Program-made: the position numbers and the translations under genes
The notes under the pieces: generated by a model
The model's database searches: none
What the model saw: only the letters and a program-made list of their open reading frames with translations
What the model was told of the DNA's origin: nothing
Shown: piece by piece, positions 3,286-29,170 of the stretch
How the letters are laid out: each line of letters opens with the position of its first letter
Numbering within the stretch: the stretch's first letter is position 1
Source: an uncultured virus (IMG/VR IMGVR_UViG_3300043781_000014)
Taxonomy: Duplodnaviria; Heunggongvirae; Uroviricota; Caudoviricetes
Strand: one strand, 5' to 3'
Virus record (IMG/VR): IMGVR_UViG_3300043781_000014
Span: 1-64,000 of that record
Length of the DNA stretch: 64,000 bases

Positions 3286-4317
3286 ATGGCTGATAATCCT
3301 TTGCATGAAAAAGTAGAGTCTGCTAATCCGTTTTACCCAGCTAAGAATAATATGAATCCTCTTGATATTGATAGGGTAGTTCAATTAATTCAGCAACACG
3401 CAGTTAACGTTGTTTGGGAGCAGGCTTATCATTGTCCTTGTTTAGATGAGCAGACAGGTCAACCTCAGCCTAATTGTCCTGTTTGTCATGGTCAAGGTTG
3501 GATTTATTTACATCCAAGAACAATTGATATGGCAATTCAAGGTGATGAAAAGAATTTTAGCTTAAATCCTACTGGTATGGATAATTTAGGTACTAGTAAA
3601 GCAACGCCACAAGTTACTGTAAATGGAATTGAACAGGGAATTAAACCGGGTGACAGAATTACAGTTACTGGGTGGACGACTAATGATTCTTATACATTTA
3701 ATGTGACTAATGAACGTTTACAAGATGGTCTATTTTTACCTTTTGATGTAGCGTCTATTAATGAAGCTTATTATATTGAAAATGGAGAATTAAAATCTAT
3801 TGATGATGTTGATAGTTCCTTACTAATTAACGAAGGTAATCAATTAGAGATTAAGGACGAAAGTTTATTAGGTAAAGTTATTACTTTATCATTAGAAGTT
3901 ATTAAGCGTTTTTATGTCGTCTCTATGATTAAAGAATTACGTTATCAACAATATTACAAGCTTAATCAAAAATTATGGGCTTTAGGTAATGGTACTCGTG
4001 CAGTTAATGAAGACGAGACTGTTATTAATGAAGAAGATCAATTAGGTAATGAGTATGTTAATCCTAATGATATGAGTAGTATTGTTCCTAAGAATATTAA
4101 ACAGGCTCAGTTACGTTCTTTTCCTCAAGTAGTAAATCGTGATGGGGCACAAATTGTAATTGGTAAGCACCAGATTTTTAGGATGCCTCCTACATTACTA
4201 ATTAGAAGAGAAAATCTTTACTTCTCTAATGTTAACTTGGCAACCTCAGACGGTAAGAATCAGTCTGTAATTAAGGACCCAACATTGAATGAGTTTGACG
4301 ACTTCCTAGGAGGCTAA
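3286..4317 (+). CDS. virion neck / head-closure protein
   Basis: WEQAYHCPC...QPQPNCPVCHGQG motif and C-terminal P..LLIRRE, typical of K-like neck genes; synteny. Confidence 0.7.
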   Translation: MADNPLHEKVESANPFYPAKNNMNPLDIDRVVQLIQQHAVNVVWEQAYHCPCLDEQTGQPQPNCPVCHGQGWIYLHPRTIDMAIQGDEKNFSLNPTGMDNLGTSKATPQVTVNGIEQGIKPGDRITVTGWTTNDSYTFNVTNERLQDGLFLPFDVASINEAYYIENGELKSIDDVDSSLLINEGNQLEIKDESLLGKVITLSLEVIKRFYVVSMIKELRYQQYYKLNQKLWALGNGTRAVNEDETVINEEDQLGNEYVNPNDMSSIVPKNIKQAQLRSFPQVVNRDGAQIVIGKHQIFRMPPTLLIRRENLYFSNVNLATSDGKNQSVIKDPTLNEFDDFLGG

Positions 4318-6077: not shown

Positions 6078-6106
6078 TATTGTTAAGTAGAAAGGAACGG
6101 GATAAA

Positions 6107-8050
6107 ATGGCACTAATTCCTTCATCTGATACTATGAAGCGAATCTACCCAAAGTTTTATAATTCACGTCCTCATGTAGAAACGAGTTATGATGACTCAG
6201 CCTTAACTAATCAATCTTCCGATTCAGAAAAGAATATCTTTTTGCTAGGTTCAGCAACAGAAGGTAATCCTAATAATGTTTATGAAATTAAGTCATCTGC
6301 CAGCGCTCGTAAGATCTTTGGTTCTGGTGACTTAGTAAAGGCAATGGAATTGATTTGGAATCCAACTGGTGACTACTACCAAAATGGTGGTAAGGTTTAT
6401 GCTATGCGGGTTGAAAATGCTACGCAAGCTTCACTAGAAGAAGGTCCTATCACTATTACTTCTAAAGTTTTTGGTGCTAGTGCTAATAAGATTGGGGTTT
6501 CATTTACTCGGGACGCTTTATCACAGGGTTATACTTTACGGGTAGAATACGAACCACAAATGTACGCTAAGAATTACACTAACATCGGTAATATCTTTGC
6601 TATTTACCACGGTGGTCGTCAAGCTACAGCTAAGTACTATGGTTACAAGGTTGTAGGTAATGTTGCTCGTGCTAATAAGTTTATCTTAGCTATGGGTGAT
6701 GATCCTAAGAATATGCAAGTAGTTCGTGAATTAGACCTTACTAAGGACTCATTTAGCGAAGTACAAAAGCTCTTATCTGCTATTAACGCAACACCGGGAT
6801 TTCAATCTACAGTTTTGAAGACTTGCGCTCGCATCAGCACTGCGGACTTAGACTTAACTCCGGGTGACGACTATGTAATGATTGGTACAGAAGATGAACC
6901 AACTACTGTTACTAGTGTTTATGGTGACTTGAAGTTATCCACTCGAATGGACCCTTACATTTCAGTAAGCATTAATTCATTAGGTGCGCCTACAGGTGTT
7001 CAGGCTACTCCTACTGCTGATGGTGCTACTATTACTGCTACACCAGTTAAGAAAGATATTCAAATTTTTGCTAATGAATATCTTTCTGGTGGAGACGATG
7101 GTCAAGTACCTATTTCATGGGCTGATAAGTTTAAGAATGTTCATGGTAAGAATGTTTACTACATTGTTCCATTAACAGCCGAAGAAAATGTTCATGCTGA
7201 ATTAGCTGAATTCCTTAGTGAAGAAAACATTTTAGGCTATAACTACATGTCCTTTGTAGGTGGTGGCTATAACGAAGACTTTAACTATGCAATTAATCGT
7301 CAATTAGGCTTGCAATCAAATCGTGTAGCTTTAGTTGCTAACTCTGGTACCTACACTAACTTGTCGGGTAATGAAGTTCATATTCCTGCTTACTTAATGG
7401 CTTCTTATGTTGCTGGTATTGCTTCTAGTCTACCTATTGGTACTCCAGTTACTCATAAGCACCTTAATTTAGTAAGTTTGGATCAAAACTTCGATGGGGA
7501 CGAACTTGATCAATTAGACGCTAATGGTGTTATTGCAATTGAAAACCAAGTACGTAGAAATACGTCTGGTGGATTTACTATTGTAGAAGATGTAACTACT
7601 TACAACTCTACTAATGAACCTACTAAGAATGTTGTTTCATTACAGGAAATTACAGACTTCTTATTTGACGACTTGCGTTACTACCTTGAAGACAACTTCA
7701 TCGGTATGCCAGTACATCAAATTACAAGTGGTTTGATTAATACCTTTATTGAAGCATTCTTGAAGCAACGGGTTTCTGATGGTATGTTAGCTAGTTATGA
7801 CGGTACATCAATTCAAACTGTAATTAATGGTAACCAAGCCTATGTATCATTCTCCTGCGCTCCATCACGTGGGTTACGAACTATCTATGTTGCTGGTACT
7901 TATACTAACTTTGTATCAAGTGCTGGTGGTAATGGTGGTTCTAACTCTGATTATGATGGGATTGAAGGTAATGGAATTAATCCAGACACGGAGTCCGTGG
8001 CTGGGATAGAAAATCAAAATCGTGTCCATACCAATTATACGGATATGTAG
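6107..8050 (+). CDS. major tail sheath protein
   Basis: RPHVET, IFGSGDL, YYIVPLT, LDQLDANGVI, IVEDVTTYN motifs of K-like sheath proteins; RBS GAAAGGA before ATG 6107. Confidence 0.92.
   Translation: MALIPSSDTMKRIYPKFYNSRPHVETSYDDSALTNQSSDSEKNIFLLGSATEGNPNNVYEIKSSASARKIFGSGDLVKAMELIWNPTGDYYQNGGKVYAMRVENATQASLEEGPITITSKVFGASANKIGVSFTRDALSQGYTLRVEYEPQMYAKNYTNIGNIFAIYHGGRQATAKYYGYKVVGNVARANKFILAMGDDPKNMQVVRELDLTKDSFSEVQKLLSAINATPGFQSTVLKTCARISTADLDLTPGDDYVMIGTEDEPTTVTSVYGDLKLSTRMDPYISVSINSLGAPTGVQATPTADGATITATPVKKDIQIFANEYLSGGDDGQVPISWADKFKNVHGKNVYYIVPLTAEENVHAELAEFLSEENILGYNYMSFVGGGYNEDFNYAINRQLGLQSNRVALVANSGTYTNLSGNEVHIPAYLMASYVAGIASSLPIGTPVTHKHLNLVSLDQNFDGDELDQLDANGVIAIENQVRRNTSGGFTIVEDVTTYNSTNEPTKNVVSLQEITDFLFDDLRYYLEDNFIGMPVHQITSGLINTFIEAFLKQRVSDGMLASYDGTSIQTVINGNQAYVSFSCAPSRGLRTIYVAGTYTNFVSSAGGNGGSNSDYDGIEGNGINPDTESVAGIENQNRVHTNYTDM
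7991..8050 (+). repeat. sheath 3' end, diverged direct repeat of 9797-9853
   Basis: CCGTGGCTGGGAT is exact at 7995-8007 and 9801-9813; ESVAGIENQNRVHTNYTDM vs ETVAGIEAQNHVQTHYAD. Confidence 0.85.
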
Positions 8051-8164: not shown

Positions 8165-9853
8165 ATGAAAACAGATCAGCAATTTAAACAGGAAGTATAT
8201 GATTTAGTAGAGAATGAATATAAATTTTTAGAAGATTATAAAGGATCAATGACCAAAATTAAAGTTCTTCATACTAAATGTGGGTATACCTATAAAGTAA
8301 CACCTAATAACTTTTTAAGAGGAAAGCGTTGTCCTAAATGTGCTGGCAATATAAGAAAAACAACTAGACAGTTTAATCAAGAGGTAAAAAGTTTAGTAGG
8401 TGACGAATATACAATTCTAACGCCTTATAAAAATGCTAGGACGAAAATTTTAGTGAAACACAATAAGTGTGGTTATACTTATAAAGTAACACCTAATGAT
8501 TTTTTAAAGGGTAATCGTTGTCCTAAATGTATTAAGAATAGAAAGAAGAATACAGATGATTTTAAACAAGAAGTTTATAATCTTGTAGGTGACGAGTATA
8601 CTGTTCTAGGTAAGTATAAGAATAGTAAAACTAAGGTATTACTAAGACATAATAAGTGTGGGAATGAATGTGATGTATTACCTAGTGCTTTTTTAAGAGG
8701 TACTAGATGCCCAAAGTGTTTTAAAAATAAGAGGAAAACAACTGAACAGTTTAAAGAAGAGGTTTATAACCTTGTAGGTAGTGAATACACTGTCTTAAGT
8801 GAATATAAGAATAGTAAAACTAAGGTATTAATGAAGCATAATAAATGTGGATCTAGTTTTTATACTTTTTCTAATAACTTTTTAAAGGGTAATCGTTGTC
8901 CTAAATGTGCTGGCAATATGAGAAAAACAACTAGACAGTTTAGTCAAGAAGTATACAATTTAGTAGGGGACGAGTATTCTGTTTTAGGTGAGTATGTAGG
9001 TAGCAACATTAAAATTTTGATGAAACATAATAAGTGTGGGAATGAATATGAAGTATCACCCAGTGCTTTTTTACAGGGTGCTAGATGCCCTCAATGCAAA
9101 GGGGGAGTTAGAAAAACACCTAAGCAGTTTGAACGGGACTTCTATTCTGTTGCACAAGGTAATTATAAATTACTAAGCGTATATAAAAATTCACATACAA
9201 AGGTCAAGGTTAAACATTTATCTTGTGGGAATGTGTATATGGTTAATCCTACTGCTTTTTTACGAGGGGAGAGGTGTCCTCGATGTTTTGGGAATCATAG
9301 AAAAACACAGCAAGAATTTGAAGATATAATATATAATTTAACAGAGGGAGATTATGTAGTATTAAGTAAGTATAAAAATGCTAATACTAAAGTTGTTTTT
9401 GAGCATAAAGTATGTGGAAATAGTTTTAGCATGGTTCCTTATGATTTTATAGGTAGTGGTCATCGTTGTCCTTGGTGTTTTCAATCAGGTTCTAGTCATG
9501 GTAATTCTATGATTGATAAAGTGTTGAGTAAATTAGGAATTAAATATTATAGGGAGTTTAAGTTTAGTGGGTGTAAGGATAAGCGCAAACTTCCATTCGA
9601 TTTTTATTTACCAGACTATAATTTATGTATAGAATATGATGGTAAACAGCATTTTGATAGAGATTCTAAATTTTATTCTACAGACTTAGTTAAACACGAT
9701 AGAATAAAAGATCAATTTTGTTTAGATAATAATATTAATCTCTTAAGGATAAAGTATACATCTGATACTTTATCTAGTGTTAGAAAATTGATATTAGAGA
9801 CCGTGGCTGGGATCGAAGCACAAAATCATGTACAAACTCACTATGCAGACTAG
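8165..9853 (+). CDS. free-standing homing-type endonuclease: 7 x 63-aa Zn-binding repeats + PD-(D/E)XK/Vsr-like nuclease domain
   Basis: Repeats HxxC-x16-CxxC; C-terminal LPFDFYLPDYNLCIEYDGKQH...D..KD.FC....I.LLRI. Confidence 0.8.
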   Translation: MKTDQQFKQEVYDLVENEYKFLEDYKGSMTKIKVLHTKCGYTYKVTPNNFLRGKRCPKCAGNIRKTTRQFNQEVKSLVGDEYTILTPYKNARTKILVKHNKCGYTYKVTPNDFLKGNRCPKCIKNRKKNTDDFKQEVYNLVGDEYTVLGKYKNSKTKVLLRHNKCGNECDVLPSAFLRGTRCPKCFKNKRKTTEQFKEEVYNLVGSEYTVLSEYKNSKTKVLMKHNKCGSSFYTFSNNFLKGNRCPKCAGNMRKTTRQFSQEVYNLVGDEYSVLGEYVGSNIKILMKHNKCGNEYEVSPSAFLQGARCPQCKGGVRKTPKQFERDFYSVAQGNYKLLSVYKNSHTKVKVKHLSCGNVYMVNPTAFLRGERCPRCFGNHRKTQQEFEDIIYNLTEGDYVVLSKYKNANTKVVFEHKVCGNSFSMVPYDFIGSGHRCPWCFQSGSSHGNSMIDKVLSKLGIKYYREFKFSGCKDKRKLPFDFYLPDYNLCIEYDGKQHFDRDSKFYSTDLVKHDRIKDQFCLDNNINLLRIKYTSDTLSSVRKLILETVAGIEAQNHVQTHYAD

Positions 9854-18337: not shown

Positions 18338-21300
18338 GTGAAAATATTGCCAAAGATAGATATTGGTGCTTATCGACAAGTAGCAAGTAAAAAGAAGAAA
18401 CCTTTTCATGTAGACTCTAAGTCTGCTGGACAAGCACTAGATCATAAACAAATTAAATCACATATAGATGTAGGTGCTTATGGTGGAGTATCAGACGCTT
18501 ATAAGAATAAAGGTCATAAGTCTGGTTCTTCTAAAGGTGGGGACGATAGAGATATTTCAAAGGCTGATGAAAACTATAAACAAATAATGCAGGAGTCTTT
18601 GAATCTAAGACAGATCCCTACTCCTCGTTATCCTACTCATATAGATCATAAGCCGGGTGATATAGCTAAATATGGTTCTATTTCAACGTCTGGTTATTTA
18701 CAGGTAACGGTAGCAACTATTTCGGGTACTTATCCTTTAGTTCCCCGTTCTGTATCTCATCAAATTCCAGATGACACACAAGATAAATTAATTGCTGATC
18801 TAATTTCAGTACAAGTACAAAATGATATGCAAAATGATATTCCAACTTTGACTATGATTTTAGGCAATAGTCATGATTGGTCTTCCCTTTTTGCTGTTAA
18901 TGATTTAATTCGGGTAGACTATATCTTACCAGACAAACAGTATCGTCAATTTGATAAGTGTATTTATACTGGTTTAGTTTCTAATTTAACTCGTAATGCT
19001 AATTACAATGGAGCGCAAGAAACTTATACGGTTGTAGGTCAAGGTATGGCTAAGATTATGAGTAATATTCAGTTGTCTACTTTTTCTGATTTACAGTCTA
19101 ACCTTAATGGTTATCAACTGCTCCCGGATGATGAAAAGACAGGGATTGGTTTTAAGCAACATACGTCTGCTAATATTATTAAGCAGATTATTAATCGGTT
19201 TGTTTTACAAAATCAAGGTGGAGTAAATACCTATGATTACTTAAATGGTCAAGGTGGTCGAGATATTACTGATCGGGCTACTCCAGTTAAAGCGGGGGTT
19301 GTTAATGACTTTATGGGTCAGCCAATGACTCAAGAACAATACCAAGCTTATTTAGATTCTTTACCTGATAAGGATGGCAATACTGCTGATGGCTCAGACC
19401 AAGATTCTGATACGGATCAAACGGGGAAGAATGATAATCCAGAAACTAATAATCAAGTTAATTGGTTAAATATTCCTATGCAGGTATCAGAAGATGGGGA
19501 ATTACCTATCCAGAATTTAATGGAGTTCTATATTTATGAAAACTTAGATGAGTCCTACCCAGACGCAGGCCCAAGCAATCCATTCTTAAATTACAATGGT
19601 TCTATTCTCCAGTTTATTAAAGACGTTTCTGCTAAGCCTTTTAATGAAATGTATTGGACTCATGATCGGGGGTTAGCTACTTTTAATTACCGCCCTACAC
19701 CGTTTGACCCCCAAAATTGGATGGGCTTACCTGTTAATGAGATTGCTCCCGGTGATATTATGAGCGTTAATATTCAAAACAATGACCAAGAGCAGGCTTC
19801 GATCTTTAAGCTTACGCCTACACAAGGTATGGGGATAGATCAGTATGACGGAGGCTTTACAGGGAATATGGCACCATTAACTAATATGGAGCTTATTCAC
19901 CGTTATGGTTATAAGTTAATGAATGTACAAGTTGATTACTTTAATGGTAATAAACAAGAGGATCCACTGTCACAAGTAACAGCAGGGACGACTAATGCAG
20001 ACAGTGAAGCTATGAAAGGGTGGACTCAAGAAGAAGCTATGCTTCATGCTCCTTATTACACATCTGTAGTTGATGCTTTTTATTATACTAGTGGACGTAA
20101 GGCTAATGGAGAAGATATTTCTATTCCTAAAGAAGCTGGTGGATCTGCTCAGTATAATGCTGTAAATGAAGCGATTAAAGCTTCTGGTAATGCTTATGAT
20201 TTTGCTCGTTCGGTTGCTGGGTTAGGAATTAGTCAAGAAGACGCTAATACACTATGGACAATGCGTAATCACTTTAATCGTACTAGCTACCTTAGTGTGA
20301 TGATGCCTAATTATACTCCTACTAATACAGCTATTTCTAAGAATTCTAAATACTTAAAGAGTTATGATCGGATGGCTAAAAACCCTGAAAAAGCGGCTGG
20401 TGAGCTGATTGATGAAATGGGTTATACGATTGGGCCAGAACAAGCTTGGGAGATTGTACAGTCTGCTTTAGCTCATGGAGGTAAACCTAGTGAGGCTGAT
20501 TATGACCGGATTATGAATTCAGTTCCTTTTGACCAAGGACATGATGGTATTAATGGATCACCAGATAGTGGTCAGCAATCTGTACCTTTCTTATTCCTTA
20601 GATATACCCAGAAATTATTTGATTGGTACGCAGATAATGCTAAGTTTTATTCTGGTACGATTACTTTAGGCTCACTTTCTACACCAATGGTAGATTGGAT
20701 TGGTGAACGGGTAATGTTTTATGATGACCCATCTGGTGTTTGGTGGGAATTTTACTGTGAAGGTGTAACTACTAGCTGGAGTTATGCTAATGGACTACAA
20801 GTTACATTAAATGTAACCCGTGGTGTTCCTTTAAGATCTGAAACAGGCGACTTTTACCGTAGATTTACGGAACCATGGAGTTTTAAGGGTAAGTTTACTC
20901 GTTTCCTAGGTGGTTACTTTGGTGAACAAAATCTTGCTACTGCTATTTCTAATGCAAGTAAAGATAGTGGTGGGAGATAGTGGCGGGAAAGGTTCTGGAG
21001 ATCTTATAGAAAAAGCTAAGGATATTATGAATAATGAAAATTGGAGCTATTCACAACCTATGCGTACGGACTTTCGCAAGAATGGTCATGCAGATTGTTC
21101 AAGTTTTGTCTGGTATGTATGTAATGCTTGTGGGTATGATGTAGGTTCATCTGCCTTTACAACTTATACAGAACCTAGTATTTTAGATGAAATTAGTGCT
21201 GATGATACTGGTTCGGGGTCTATTGTTGTTAATGATAATGGTGGTAATTCACACACTGCTTTTCTTGAAGAGAAGTGGAAGGGTGATGATACAGCAATCA

Positions 21301-21419
21301 TTAATATGGGTGGTCGAGACAATCACGGTGGACCTAGTGGAGATGTTAATGAAGATACCTATGGAATGGCTTTTGCTAAAGGTGGGTCAATAAAATTTTA
21401 TAAGCCAAAAAAGAAGTAA
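18338..21419 (+). CDS. baseplate hub / tail lysin with C-terminal NlpC/P60 peptidase; apparent +1 frameshift at ~20973
   Basis: KPFNEMYW, RPTPFDP, YGYK, TLNVTRG motifs of the K-like hub; DCSSFV...HT in the downstream frame. Confidence 0.75.
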
Positions 21420-25398: not shown

Positions 25399-25475
25399 GT
25401 TTGGGTCTATATTAATTAATGACCACTAAGATATATCTTAAGTTTAACCTTTTATTTGAAAGGAAAGTGATTATA

Positions 25476-26416
25476 ATCGCGACTGTAAGCAACCAAACGG
25501 TTAGGTATTAGCTGTTTCAAAATTTCCTCTAAACGGGTATAGCTAAATAAATAGTAGTAATAAAAGAGAATAAGCTAGTAAGAGAGACTAAGCCCTGTAA
25601 TCTACTAGGGGTAGAGTTGACCAACCGTTCTAAATAAAAAGACTAACGACTAAAGTTCTAATAATTTATTAGATAAGAGCCTTATGGTGTAATGAGGAAG
25701 ATTCCTACTAAGGAATAAGATATAGTCTAATTTTATATGAAAGTATAAATATAATTTTTGTAATACCTCCAACCGAATTTATATTATGGCAAAGAACCAC
25801 TTAATTGCACGTGCCCAAAGCTTGACAGCTAATAGAAGTTACGGTACTGAGGGTGTATACGAAATCGGATCCATTAACTAGCATAGTGGTGGTTAACAGT
25901 AATGTTAATTGAAAAATTCTACTAAACGGGTAAAGCTGAATAACTGAATTGAATAGGCTAGTAAGAGAGGCTACGTCCAGAGGTGGATAGAGCTAACCAA
26001 CCGTTCTAAAACAAAAGACTAACGATTAAGTCCTTATTAGATTAAGATAAGGTAATGTAGAACCTCTTATAGAGAGGAAGATATAATCTAATCTTTTTAG
26101 AAATAAGTAGTTAATATAATGTATGCCAAGGGAACACGTATACCTAAAATATACGGGTTCTCTTACACTAGAAAGATTTCGTATGGTACGAGATAACCTT
26201 GCATCTAAACAAATGGATATAGCCCATCTGGGAGAAGACATCTTGCAAGCTGACGTTTTAACCATTTCTGTAATGGATAGCGTTACTAAAATGGTAGTCG
26301 AAGCGTTTTACGGATGCAGTGCTTCCACCTACAACACCAGTTATAGAGCCAATCAAATCGTATCTGAATCTATTGAGTTTCTTTACCTCAGCTCTTCGAC
26401 TGGCTCACAGTCATAA
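25476..26416 (+). CDS. major tail tube protein, join(25476..25501,25761..25874,26122..26416), 144 aa
   Basis: Spliced product (M)ATVSNQTVNTSNRIYIMAKNHLIARAQSLTANRSYGTEGVYEIGSIMPREHVYLKY...GCSASTYN...EFLYL is collinear with K/Twort tail tube proteins. Start is ATC (or GTG 25467). Confidence 0.9.
25502..25760 (+). ncRNA. group I intron 1 (259 nt, no ORF) in tail tube gene
   Basis: P1 AAACGGU/GCUGUUU with U-G at the splice site; P10 AGGUAUUA/UAAUACCU; P7 GACUA/UAGUC with AAGAUAUAGUC; terminal G. Confidence 0.9.
25875..26121 (+). ncRNA. group I intron 2 (247 nt, no ORF) in tail tube gene
   Basis: P1 CCAU/GUGG; P10 GCAUA/UAUGC; P7 GAUUA/UAAUC (compensatory relative to intron 1); terminal G. Confidence 0.9.
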
Positions 26417-26586: not shown

Positions 26587-28434
26587 TTGAAAAAATTAAC
26601 TTTTGAAGAATTTAATTATAGGGCACAGCGTATACTAGGATCTAGTTATGTTTTTTATCCTCCATATAAGGATATGAAAACGCCTGTTAAATATAAGCAT
26701 TTAGTGTGCGGTACTACTGGAACCTTAATTCCTGATAACATTTTTAGGGGTAAAGCTAAATGCAAGTATTGTAGTATGAGGAGGAGATCTGGTAGACGTA
26801 TGATAACAGACGATGAGTTTAGGAAAAGGCTACATAAAGTCCGCTCTAGCGATGATATTATTTTACTTGAGCCTATACATGGTATTTTTAAGAAAACCAA
26901 GGCAAAATGTCTTGTGTGTGGATATGGTTCAAAAGGTGAATGGACTCCTCTTCCAGTTAACTTATTAAAGGGTAAAGGGTGTCCTAATTGTGCAGGTAAT
27001 GCCCCTAAAACACCAGATAAGGTAATTAAAGAAGTCAAAGATTTAGGGAAGGGTGAGTATGAATTATTAGGAACTAAGAGAACTAAAAAAGATGGTTTAT
27101 GGTTACATTTACTCCATAAAGAGTGCGAAAATGATTATTGGGTTCGTGACTATAGTTTCATACATGGTTATCGTTGTAAATTTTGTGCTAATAAAGCAAC
27201 AGGTGACAGATGTAGGCTATCCTTAGACGAAGTTAAGCAACGAATTACAAGGGTTGCTGATAGTCGTTATACATATGTAAGTGGTAATTATAAGAACAAC
27301 CAAAGCCCTATCTATGTAAGGCACAACGTATGTGGTACTGTGTTTAAAACCACATGGGGGCAACTTAGTGCTAATAGGGGATTGTGTCCTAATTGTGGTT
27401 CTTCTAATGGTGAGCAGGTGATTATGAACTATTTAGTATCACACAGGATTAGTTACTCTTATGGTTATTTAATTCCAGATTTAATAGATAAGAAAAACCT
27501 TCACTTTGACTTCTGGTTGTCTCAATTCAATACTGCTATTGAATATGATGGCCAACAACATTTTAATCCTGTCGATTTGTTTGGGGGTAAAGAGTGTTAT
27601 GAATTGCAAAATAAACATGATGAAATGAAAGATAATTATTGTAAGAAAAAAGGTATTAATTTAATTAGGATTAAATATAATGAAAGTATTAAGGACACAT
27701 TAGACTATTATCTTTTACCTTTAGTAGATAAGCTTAGTGACGTTGAGTTTAGAAAGGTAGAGAGTACAGATCTTAACGAGTTAATGATTAGGTATCATTA
27801 TTTACACCGTAAAGTGACTACTTCTTATTGTTATGGTTTATATTATCGAGGAAGTCTGGCAGGAATGGTAACATATACAAGACCTAGAATTAGCCTTGCT
27901 CAGTCAATCTCGCCTTTAGCTAATAAAGATAACACCCTAGAACTATCCAGACTATACATAAAAGATGAAGTAAGCCAAAACTTAAAGAATATTACTTCTA
28001 AGTTTGTCTCATGGACTTTAAGACAGTTAAAGAAAGAACAAGATGGTAATTGGTTTATTATTTCCTTTGCAGATCAAGGTATGCACCATACAGGAGCAAT
28101 TTACCAAGCTACTAATTTCTTATACTGTGGGACTACTAAACATCGTGAATACTCTTGGAATGGATATGGTAAGCATGGCGGTGTATGGGAAAAAGGTCAT
28201 TACTATAGGTATATGATAATTAGTCCTATCAAATATCGTTACATTATGTTCTTAGGATCAAAGACTTTTAAGAAACAAGCCCGTAAGACCCTTAAATTTG
28301 AAATTGAACCTTATCCTAAACAAGATAGCGTTCACTATTCTGTAGGTGACACAGAGGAAAGACTAATTCGAGACCGAGAAACTGGTAAGATTTGGAAAGA
28401 GTCTGAGTTAGTTAAACATCTAAAGAAAGATTAA
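26587..28434 (+). CDS. Zn-repeat + PD-(D/E)XK endonuclease fused to C-terminal Mom-like (GNAT-fold) DNA-modification domain
   Basis: Four CxxC-type repeats; HFDFWL..FNTAIEYDGQQH; then HYLHR..YGLY..LELSRL..IISFADQGMHHTGAIYQATNFLYCG. Confidence 0.75.
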   Translation: MKKLTFEEFNYRAQRILGSSYVFYPPYKDMKTPVKYKHLVCGTTGTLIPDNIFRGKAKCKYCSMRRRSGRRMITDDEFRKRLHKVRSSDDIILLEPIHGIFKKTKAKCLVCGYGSKGEWTPLPVNLLKGKGCPNCAGNAPKTPDKVIKEVKDLGKGEYELLGTKRTKKDGLWLHLLHKECENDYWVRDYSFIHGYRCKFCANKATGDRCRLSLDEVKQRITRVADSRYTYVSGNYKNNQSPIYVRHNVCGTVFKTTWGQLSANRGLCPNCGSSNGEQVIMNYLVSHRISYSYGYLIPDLIDKKNLHFDFWLSQFNTAIEYDGQQHFNPVDLFGGKECYELQNKHDEMKDNYCKKKGINLIRIKYNESIKDTLDYYLLPLVDKLSDVEFRKVESTDLNELMIRYHYLHRKVTTSYCYGLYYRGSLAGMVTYTRPRISLAQSISPLANKDNTLELSRLYIKDEVSQNLKNITSKFVSWTLRQLKKEQDGNWFIISFADQGMHHTGAIYQATNFLYCGTTKHREYSWNGYGKHGGVWEKGHYYRYMIISPIKYRYIMFLGSKTFKKQARKTLKFEIEPYPKQDSVHYSVGDTEERLIRDRETGKIWKESELVKHLKKD

Positions 28435-28555
28435 GGGGAATTAAGAAAGAGGTATAACAACGAAACTGTTGGAGAATATTCTTTCTTTTTATAATTAAGT
28501 ATTGACAACCTGTCTATTCTATTGTATTATAATAGCTGTAAAGGAGTTGTTAAGT

Positions 28556-29170
28556 ATGCGAAGAAAAACTGATAAAGAATTTAAACAAGAATTGCATGAT
28601 TTAGTAGGTGATGAATATACAGCTTTAGATCATTATGAGAAAGGAACAATTAAGATTCATATTAAGCATAATAAATGTGGTCATGTGCTATATGTTTATC
28701 CTTTGGCTTTTTTACAAAGACCTCACTGCCCTTATTGTAGTGGTCGCCCACGTTACACCCCAGCAGAGTATAGGGAGTATGTAAAAGAAATGACTAATGA
28801 TGCGTACGAGGTTTTAGACGATTTTGTAAATAATAGGACACCAATTCGTTATAAGCATAAGAAATGTGGTACTGTATTTAAGACTCTTCCTAATACCTTT
28901 AGTGTTGGGTCTGTTCGCTGTCCTGTATGTGCTAATAAGGTTCGTTCTAAGAAGCAATCCTTAACCACTGAGGAATTTAAGGAGCGGGTTCATAATTTAC
29001 CACATGGAGACGAATTCGAAGTTCTATCTGAATATAAAGGCTACCACCAACGTGTTACCTTTAAGCATAAGAAGTGTGATACTGTATGGATGACTACCCC
29101 AGCCAGTTTCTTTCTTAGTAAACATAAATGTCCGGTATGTGCAATTAATTCAACTAGAAAGGTTAAGTAA
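28556..29170 (+). CDS. protein of three Zn-binding repeats with no nuclease domain
   Basis: Same KHxKCG...CPxC repeat as 8165-9853; own TTGACA promoter at 28502 and AAGGAG RBS. Confidence 0.75.
   Translation: MRRKTDKEFKQELHDLVGDEYTALDHYEKGTIKIHIKHNKCGHVLYVYPLAFLQRPHCPYCSGRPRYTPAEYREYVKEMTNDAYEVLDDFVNNRTPIRYKHKKCGTVFKTLPNTFSVGSVRCPVCANKVRSKKQSLTTEEFKERVHNLPHGDEFEVLSEYKGYHQRVTFKHKKCDTVWMTTPASFFLSKHKCPVCAINSTRKVK

Follow-up and report, generated by a model that had tools for sequence, protein, structure and literature searches.

Two ORF-less group I introns of a terminase- and DNA polymerase-associated family split the tail tube gene of an uncultured phage

The closest described system is orf142 of phage Twort, which the excerpted text of PMC11878797 identifies as the tail tube gene and describes as carrying several group I introns. 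Phage tail tube introns are thus not new in themselves, and the precedent that the initial annotation of the present locus had drawn from Twort holds. Prophages of the Bacillus cereus group carry the introns TMP-IVS1, TMP-IVS2, and term-IVS1 and an intron in the tail tube gene (Tourasse & Kolsto, PMC2504315, excerpts). In the Bastillevirinae, terL introns accompany PHROG 559 VSR-like nucleases (PMC11878797, excerpts). The partnership of a free-standing endonuclease with an ORF-less intron has been termed collaborative homing, and for the reverse-splicing route to new sites the excerpted part of the same source notes no direct evidence (PMC3984707).

We analyzed a window of 64,000 nt, the whole stretch of DNA taken from the uncultured virus IMGVR_UViG_3300043781_000014, to which all coordinates refer. 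A hidden tube gene of 144 residues with two introns had been proposed for it, and the frame opens exactly where this proposal places it: excision of 25502 to 25760 and 25875 to 26121 leaves 435 nt, which is 144 codons plus a stop, with no internal stop. Exon 1 (25476 to 25501, plus strand, as are all exon and intron features below) begins with ATC, a nonstandard and putative start. Exon 2 (25761 to 25874, 114 nt) matches positions 11 to 46 of PHROG 985 (E value of 9e-14), and exon 3 (26122 to 26416) matches positions 48 to 138 of PHROG 985 (2e-34) and positions 48 to 138 of the tail tube protein in PDB entry 8q01 (5e-26). Both introns interrupt the frame in phase 2, at codons 9 and 47. Homology to the Herelleviridae tail tube protein (PHROG 985; PDB 8q01), for which the reference is about 142 residues long, spans the length of the product in a single copy. 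Alignment of the intron-less allele L088 with the Twort tube protein starts at residue 1 and gives 65% identity over the first 68 residues. By tube protein, the best cultured match is LfeInf, a Lactobacillus phage of the Herelleviridae (77%), a match that does not establish the host of the window phage. Gene callers detect the exon 3 part alone, as an ORF of 97 residues from 26123, and the tube gene is accordingly misannotated, with only its last 97 residues reported.

The position directly behind the sheath gene (6080 to 8050), which the tube gene holds in Twort, is taken here by a PHROG 559 nuclease (8165 to 9853), and the tube gene lies about 17 kb downstream. The LfeInf tube gene is likewise away from a sheath gene in the stretch examined. 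At 18338 to 21419, two overlapping ORFs match the PHROG 1015 tail lysin (profile positions 191 to 621 and 647 to 725), and LfeInf has two annotated genes so named.

A Shine-Dalgarno-like GAAAGGA, read from the sequence at 25457 to 25463 (plus strand), precedes the ATC by 11 nt, and relatives keep the same spacing ahead of TTG, ATC, or ATT. The ATC at 25476 to 25478 stands where L001 to L005 and L088 have TTG; L081 and L085 have ATC too, and L008 has ATT. The alternative in-frame GTG at 25467 is merely 3 nt past GAAAGGA. Translation of the tube gene appears to start at the ATC. A promoter scan (10 found versus 7.7 expected) and a candidate late-promoter word (4 matches versus 3.2 expected) were not used.

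The initial annotation had named a tube protein encoded by another gene as one outcome that would speak against it. No second PHROG 985 locus was found, the split gene being the only one in five of the five records searched, three complete sister genomes among them. A contractile-tailed phage requires a tube. Given this need and a sole, presumably essential, tube gene, splicing must therefore work, and it must work for both introns, as the unspliced reading frame meets a stop within a few codons of entering either one. The exon proteins are 92 to 100% conserved among close alleles, many synonymous changes notwithstanding. In L005, one additional base at 4231 to 4233 shifts the exon 3 frame, possibly through an assembly error.

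Intron 1 (25502 to 25760, 259 nt) contains no ORF, has no P2, and ends in G; intron 2 (25875 to 26121, 247 nt) contains no ORF and likewise ends in G. Each is supported by the frame, by alignment to Rfam model RF00028, by its pairings, by its absence from related alleles, and by a joint in RNA-run contigs described below. The stems bear the helix names customary for group I introns. In intron 1, these are P1 (25495 to 25501 with 25511 to 25517, 7 bp, ending in U-G), P10 (25503 to 25510 with 25761 to 25768, 8 bp), P3 (25524 to 25529 with 25694 to 25699), and P7 (25648 to 25652 with 25723 to 25727, GACUA/UAGUC). In intron 2, they are P1 (25871 to 25874 with 25886 to 25889, 4 bp, ending in U-G), P10 (25881 to 25885 with 26122 to 26126, 5 bp), P2 (25893 to 25908), which intron 1 lacks, P3 (25917 to 25922 with 26057 to 26062), and P7 (26024 to 26028 with 26084 to 26088, GAUUA/UAAUC). 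The U-G P1, the P10, and the terminal G that had been claimed for both introns were all found. The two were also rightly called ORF-less: no sense stretch free of stops exceeds 28 codons in intron 1 or 21 codons in intron 2, and neither holds a homing endonuclease ORF of its own in a peripheral loop. Each of four sequence blocks reported as shared occurs once per intron and nowhere else in the window. The longest word common to both introns is 15 nt (maximum of 12 in 200 shuffles), BLASTN aligns them at 67% over 245 columns (5e-15), and both have a short P6.

These pairings recur in natural alleles. P1 with its terminal U-G, P10, P3, P7, and the final G are present in six of six intron 1 alleles and five of five intron 2 alleles; P10 has 7 to 8 bp in intron 1 and 5 bp in intron 2, while P3 has 6 bp and P7 has 5 bp in all 11. 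P3 takes three forms among the intron 1 alleles and a fourth in intron 2, always paired, with two-sided changes between alleles and between introns, and P10 of L003 is changed on both sides. The compensatory change that had been noted in P7 sets a C-G pair in intron 1 against a U-A pair in intron 2, and L002 has the wobble U-G intermediate.

The proposed RF00028 search reached both introns, aligning J8/7-P7-P9 of each, but the scores of 31.5 bits (E value of 7e-6) for intron 1 and 17.1 bits (0.14) for intron 2 are below the gathering score of 50; at the gathering threshold, Rfam gave no hit in the whole window. An ARAGORN scan found none. Single-strand minimum-energy folds were no more stable than those of shuffled sequences (z of -0.98 and -0.86), by a method that cannot represent the P3/P7 pseudoknot, and the lack of excess stability is unsurprising for an AU-rich pseudoknotted RNA. 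Subgroup IA2 introns have P7.1/P7.2 between P7 and P3, a P2 with a GNRA loop, and a simple P4-P5. Compared with these features, both introns here have extra stems after P7, P2 is present in intron 2 only, and P4 has an extra hairpin. One could take the low Rfam scores, the ATC start, the missing P2 of intron 1, and the weak folds as signs that the inserts are dead or protein-dependent relics in a pseudogene, or that the splice is an artifact. We consider this barely credible in view of the sole tube gene in three complete genomes, the conservation of the exon proteins despite synonymous changes, the compensatory pairs within the introns, and the joined contigs.

With exon 3 as the query, 10 loci were retrieved from viral and 9 from metagenome sequences (L080 repeats L003). 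Eight close alleles, the window included, display all four states of intron presence and absence: both introns (the window, L002, L003, and L005), intron 1 only (L004 and L081), intron 2 only (L001), and neither (L088). Intron 1 is thus found in six and intron 2 in five of the eight, while none of 11 more distant tube loci carries either. Both junctions are fixed because intron-empty alleles exist: L001 and L088 lack intron 1, and L004, L081, and L088 lack intron 2. The exon flanks that pair with the intron guides occur in six of six and five of five intron-bearing alleles and in zero of two and zero of three close intron-less alleles. A scan for the exon 2 flank motif gave 10 loci, namely four known intron 2 alleles, one distant intron-less tube gene, and five without a tube match.

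RNA evidence came from 4 of 22 listed runs (X17, X12, X10, and X8), in all cases as contigs, which drop rare forms; absence of cover in a run was not used as evidence. A single contig of 299 nt from X17, a pig gut metatranscriptome, with a depth of 29.8, lacks precisely the 259 nt and 247 nt of the introns, at joints 25501->25761 and 25874->26122, whose position could fall up to 2 letters further on. Among the X17 pieces listed, none was the tube intron itself. X12, from a different study, has a contig of 163 nt (depth of 3) that covers exon 2, with loose ends that we interpret as exon 1 and exon 3; it also contains a 186-nt piece identical to intron 1, together with an intron-2-less allele. 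X10 has a piece inside intron 2 only. X8, probably a DNA run, has no exon joint and one contig spanning the border of intron 2 and exon 3. Its joint 25551->25951 was rejected as a tube splice: one side is 22 nt, and a different intron of the family is its probable source.

The joined contigs are most simply taken as spliced mRNA. Read from the RNA runs themselves, they could also come from an intron-less allele; L113, a distant intron-less tube gene, carries an intron-2-type flank. Against such a source, no difference between the X17 contig and the window is listed at the guide-pairing exon flanks, which the close intron-less alleles do not have.

We put at roughly 90% the probability that a single essential Herelleviridae tail tube gene carries two functional ORF-less group I introns, which arrived separately from a family populating terL and polA. 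The split of the tube gene is genuine, with borders placed to the single nucleotide, and its splicing is very likely. We infer catalysis along the usual lines: the guide of each intron would pair with the upstream exon in P1, with U-G at the cut, and free guanosine would be bound in P7; the intron would then cut, P10 would align the next exon, and ligation would take place at the terminal G.

It had also been pointed out that exon 2 could be skipped in frame. Its 114 nt, the phase 2 position of both introns, and the open skip frame bear this out, and exon skipping is possible as noise but unsupported as a function. A hybrid intron would mismatch in two of six P3 pairs and one of five P7 pairs, the intron 2 guide fits the end of exon 1 poorly, and in the normal register intron 1 P10 forms three of eight pairs with exon 3; by eye, its P10 loop could pair there if the register is shifted and one bulge allowed. 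The skipped product would lose 38 of 144 residues and profile positions 11 to 46. That the intron pair serves alternative splicing, giving a 106-residue product or tuning tube output, has precedents in Twort orf142 and in polA of phage SIOphi, as far as the excerpted sources go. We nevertheless regard it as very unlikely here: in addition to the poor fit of the hybrid core, guide, and P10, the Twort case as excerpted has two highly similar introns flanking a 23-nt exon, no skip joint was found among the contigs (which drop rare forms) in four of four runs, and the pair is not required, three of eight alleles having one intron and one of eight having none.

The introns match terL introns of LP65, PBEF129, and BE05 (69 to 76% over 108 to 147 nt). 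A scan of viral contigs with a family pattern gave 60 loci, 2 of which (L021 and L076) were excluded as nonintron. In the stretches fetched, terL holds five family introns in G001, one in G002, and two in G003, and polA of G002 holds two; three of the G001 introns contain ORFs of 254 to 323 residues. The record of the window is 57% complete and lacks the terminase region, because of which the paralogues are visible in sister genomes only. No other family intron was found in that record, with one 14-nt match at an E value of 0.2. In bacterial and archaeal genomes, the pattern gave 28 matches, none of which extends into an intron core, and these were discarded as chance. Two terL or polA introns of L104 (2012 to 2215 and 2414 to 2626) are compact family members of 204 and 213 nt, with only 34 nt between the P7 motifs and no P7.1. 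Compact introns without P7.1 also occur in L106 and L107, the compact forms being located in terL and polA of sister genomes. The terL intron at 2012 to 2215 of L104 seems to end in A and not G if the terminase frame is kept, and the ends are alike in L106 and L031.

The initial annotation had derived both introns from one ancestor by transposition. They are homologous at the family level, but direct duplication of one tube intron into the other appears disfavored, because each is closer to terL/polA introns than to its neighbor. Identity between the two is 62, 69, and 68% in the P2-P3 region, core, and P9, while intron 1 and the ORF-less terL intron L067 share 71, 83, and 79%; for intron 2, the best values against terL or polA introns are 88% in the P2 region and 91% in both the core and P9. 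As these best module matches are three different introns, intron 2 looks mosaic. In a 60-row core tree (102 columns), L067 is the partner of intron 1 (95/95), while L023 and L032 group with intron 2 (85/91), and an AU test on the 102 columns does not reject a single clade of both introns (P = 0.098). This last result would allow copying of one intron from the other within the tube gene followed by divergence, as would their homology (67%), their separation by only 114 nt, their common short P6, and the masking that later exchange with paralogues could bring about. We hold such copying to be unlikely in view of the identities above and of the parts list, intron 1 having kissing loops and no P2 and intron 2 having P2 and short loops. 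The best fit is that the two arrived separately from a family spread over the genome and that exchange followed. This family populates the terminase and DNA polymerase genes of these phages, and the tube introns would have come separately from such paralogues, exchanging parts with them. Tourasse & Kolsto describe a comparable pattern for Bacillus prophages.

A hairpin at 25538 to 25577 is inserted in the 5' strand of P4, making a three-way junction, and is conserved in the family, with seven pairs, 98% of cells paired, and three pairs changed on both sides. Its loop (25552 to 25557) is predicted to form a kissing pair of six Watson-Crick pairs with L5 (25602 to 25607). We aligned 55 cores (56 were extracted; L039 was dropped as a duplicate of L038). 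A 23-pair model of P4-P5-P6 was paired in 95.3% of cells, with a covariation of 0.296 versus 0.142 in shuffles (reached in 0 of 500), and slid controls were at most 46% paired with a covariation of 0.091. The search pattern had fixed some columns, including part of the invariant P4 pairs, and invariant pairs were given no weight. Both loops are long in 18 of the 39 distinct loop types, by thresholds chosen after viewing the alignment. In every one of the 18, the hairpin loop matches L5 by six or seven Watson-Crick pairs, with 16 different sequences represented, while noncognate combinations reach five pairs in 44 of 306; no permutation in 5,000 reached the observed mean, loop types being treated as independent of kinship. 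The other 21 types, intron 2 included, have no loop-loop pair, whereas intron 1 has it. The kissing pair is optional within the intron family.

We found no published description of the inserted hairpin or the kissing pair in a search that took in excerpts of PMC2504315 and PMC5618024 and lay largely outside subscription papers. In the main text of PMC11878797, as excerpted, neither is described, and its supplement with clade-specific features may show the fold. Tentatively, and at slightly less than even odds, we suggest that the family is an undescribed structural subgroup, with a P4 three-way junction and a lock of 6 to 7 bp on L5. In terL, polA, and the tube gene, its multicopy introns would swap P2, P4-P6, P7.1, and P9 by recombination, so that new introns would be pieced together from existing domains and would spread without encoding a nuclease. 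The P2-less intron 1 may depend on the lock. With a covarying loop-loop pair in a ribozyme of 250 nt, a peripheral fold can be tested cleanly by mutation.

A candidate helper of intron 2 in trans, weakly indicated, lies just downstream of the tube gene. A free-standing fusion of a PHROG 559-type nuclease with a Mom domain (26587 to 28434, plus strand, 615 residues) may act as its mobilizer; the Mom domain is PF25680, at residues 387 to 578, and the Mom-like part of L006 matches separately at 60%. The fusion adjoins five of five intron 2 alleles and zero of two intron-2-less alleles with downstream DNA. At nt 60 to 150 of exon 3, the intron 2 alleles differ among themselves at 0 to 9 positions and from the intron-2-less group at 13 to 20. 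The co-occurrence and the divide in the exon 3 flank, from seven related alleles, hint at co-conversion or collaborative homing. For intron 1 and an upstream nuclease, no association was seen among the alleles. Lacking nucleases of their own, the introns would be gained and lost by recombination, probably aided in trans by neighborhood nucleases. Further downstream, at 28502 to 29170, a 222-residue ORF with zinc finger repeats resembles the N-terminal part of PHROG 559, with the C-terminal half of the profile unmatched, and it is kept in L001 to L005 and L081.

In comparison with known systems, the locus resembles collaborative homing in that the ORF-less intron 2 lies beside a co-occurring free-standing nuclease; it differs in that no such partner was seen for intron 1, and the nuclease here is known from co-occurrence in seven related alleles. 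Like Twort orf142 with introns I1 to I3 (PMC11878797, PMC10136302, PMC4853749, excerpts), it has more than one ORF-less group I intron within a single structural gene, and one of the same tail tube family; in Twort (NC_007021), too, a nuclease gene is annotated just downstream of the tube gene. However, the Twort introns lie within the last 30 codons or so and not at codons 9 and 47, and in Twort the skipped exon, of 23 nt, involves the highly similar introns I2 and I3, according to the same excerpts. Orthology with the three Twort sites was rejected: the sites differ, and BLASTN gave no match to the Twort tube locus at an E value of 0.01. The terL introns of LP65, Enterococcus phage PBEF129, and Sepunavirus BE05 are of the same family by sequence and P4-P5 architecture. 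Unlike Herelleviridae terL introns, those of the window are in the tube gene, have no nuclease ORF, and have P6 cut to a short loop. The B. cereus prophages (PMC2504315, excerpts) likewise have homologous introns at two sites within a single structural gene, the core being conserved and P1 adapted, as well as a terminase intron with relatives among the tail gene introns and an intron in the tail tube gene; they are temperate, and their introns are of IA1 or IA2, the likeness being drawn from the published description. To these systems the present locus adds a four-state polymorphism, a link to terL/polA paralogues, joined RNA-run contigs, and a kissing-loop fold. Eight alleles in four states, together with close terL/polA paralogues, make up a compact natural experiment in which the spread of ORF-less group I introns becomes testable.
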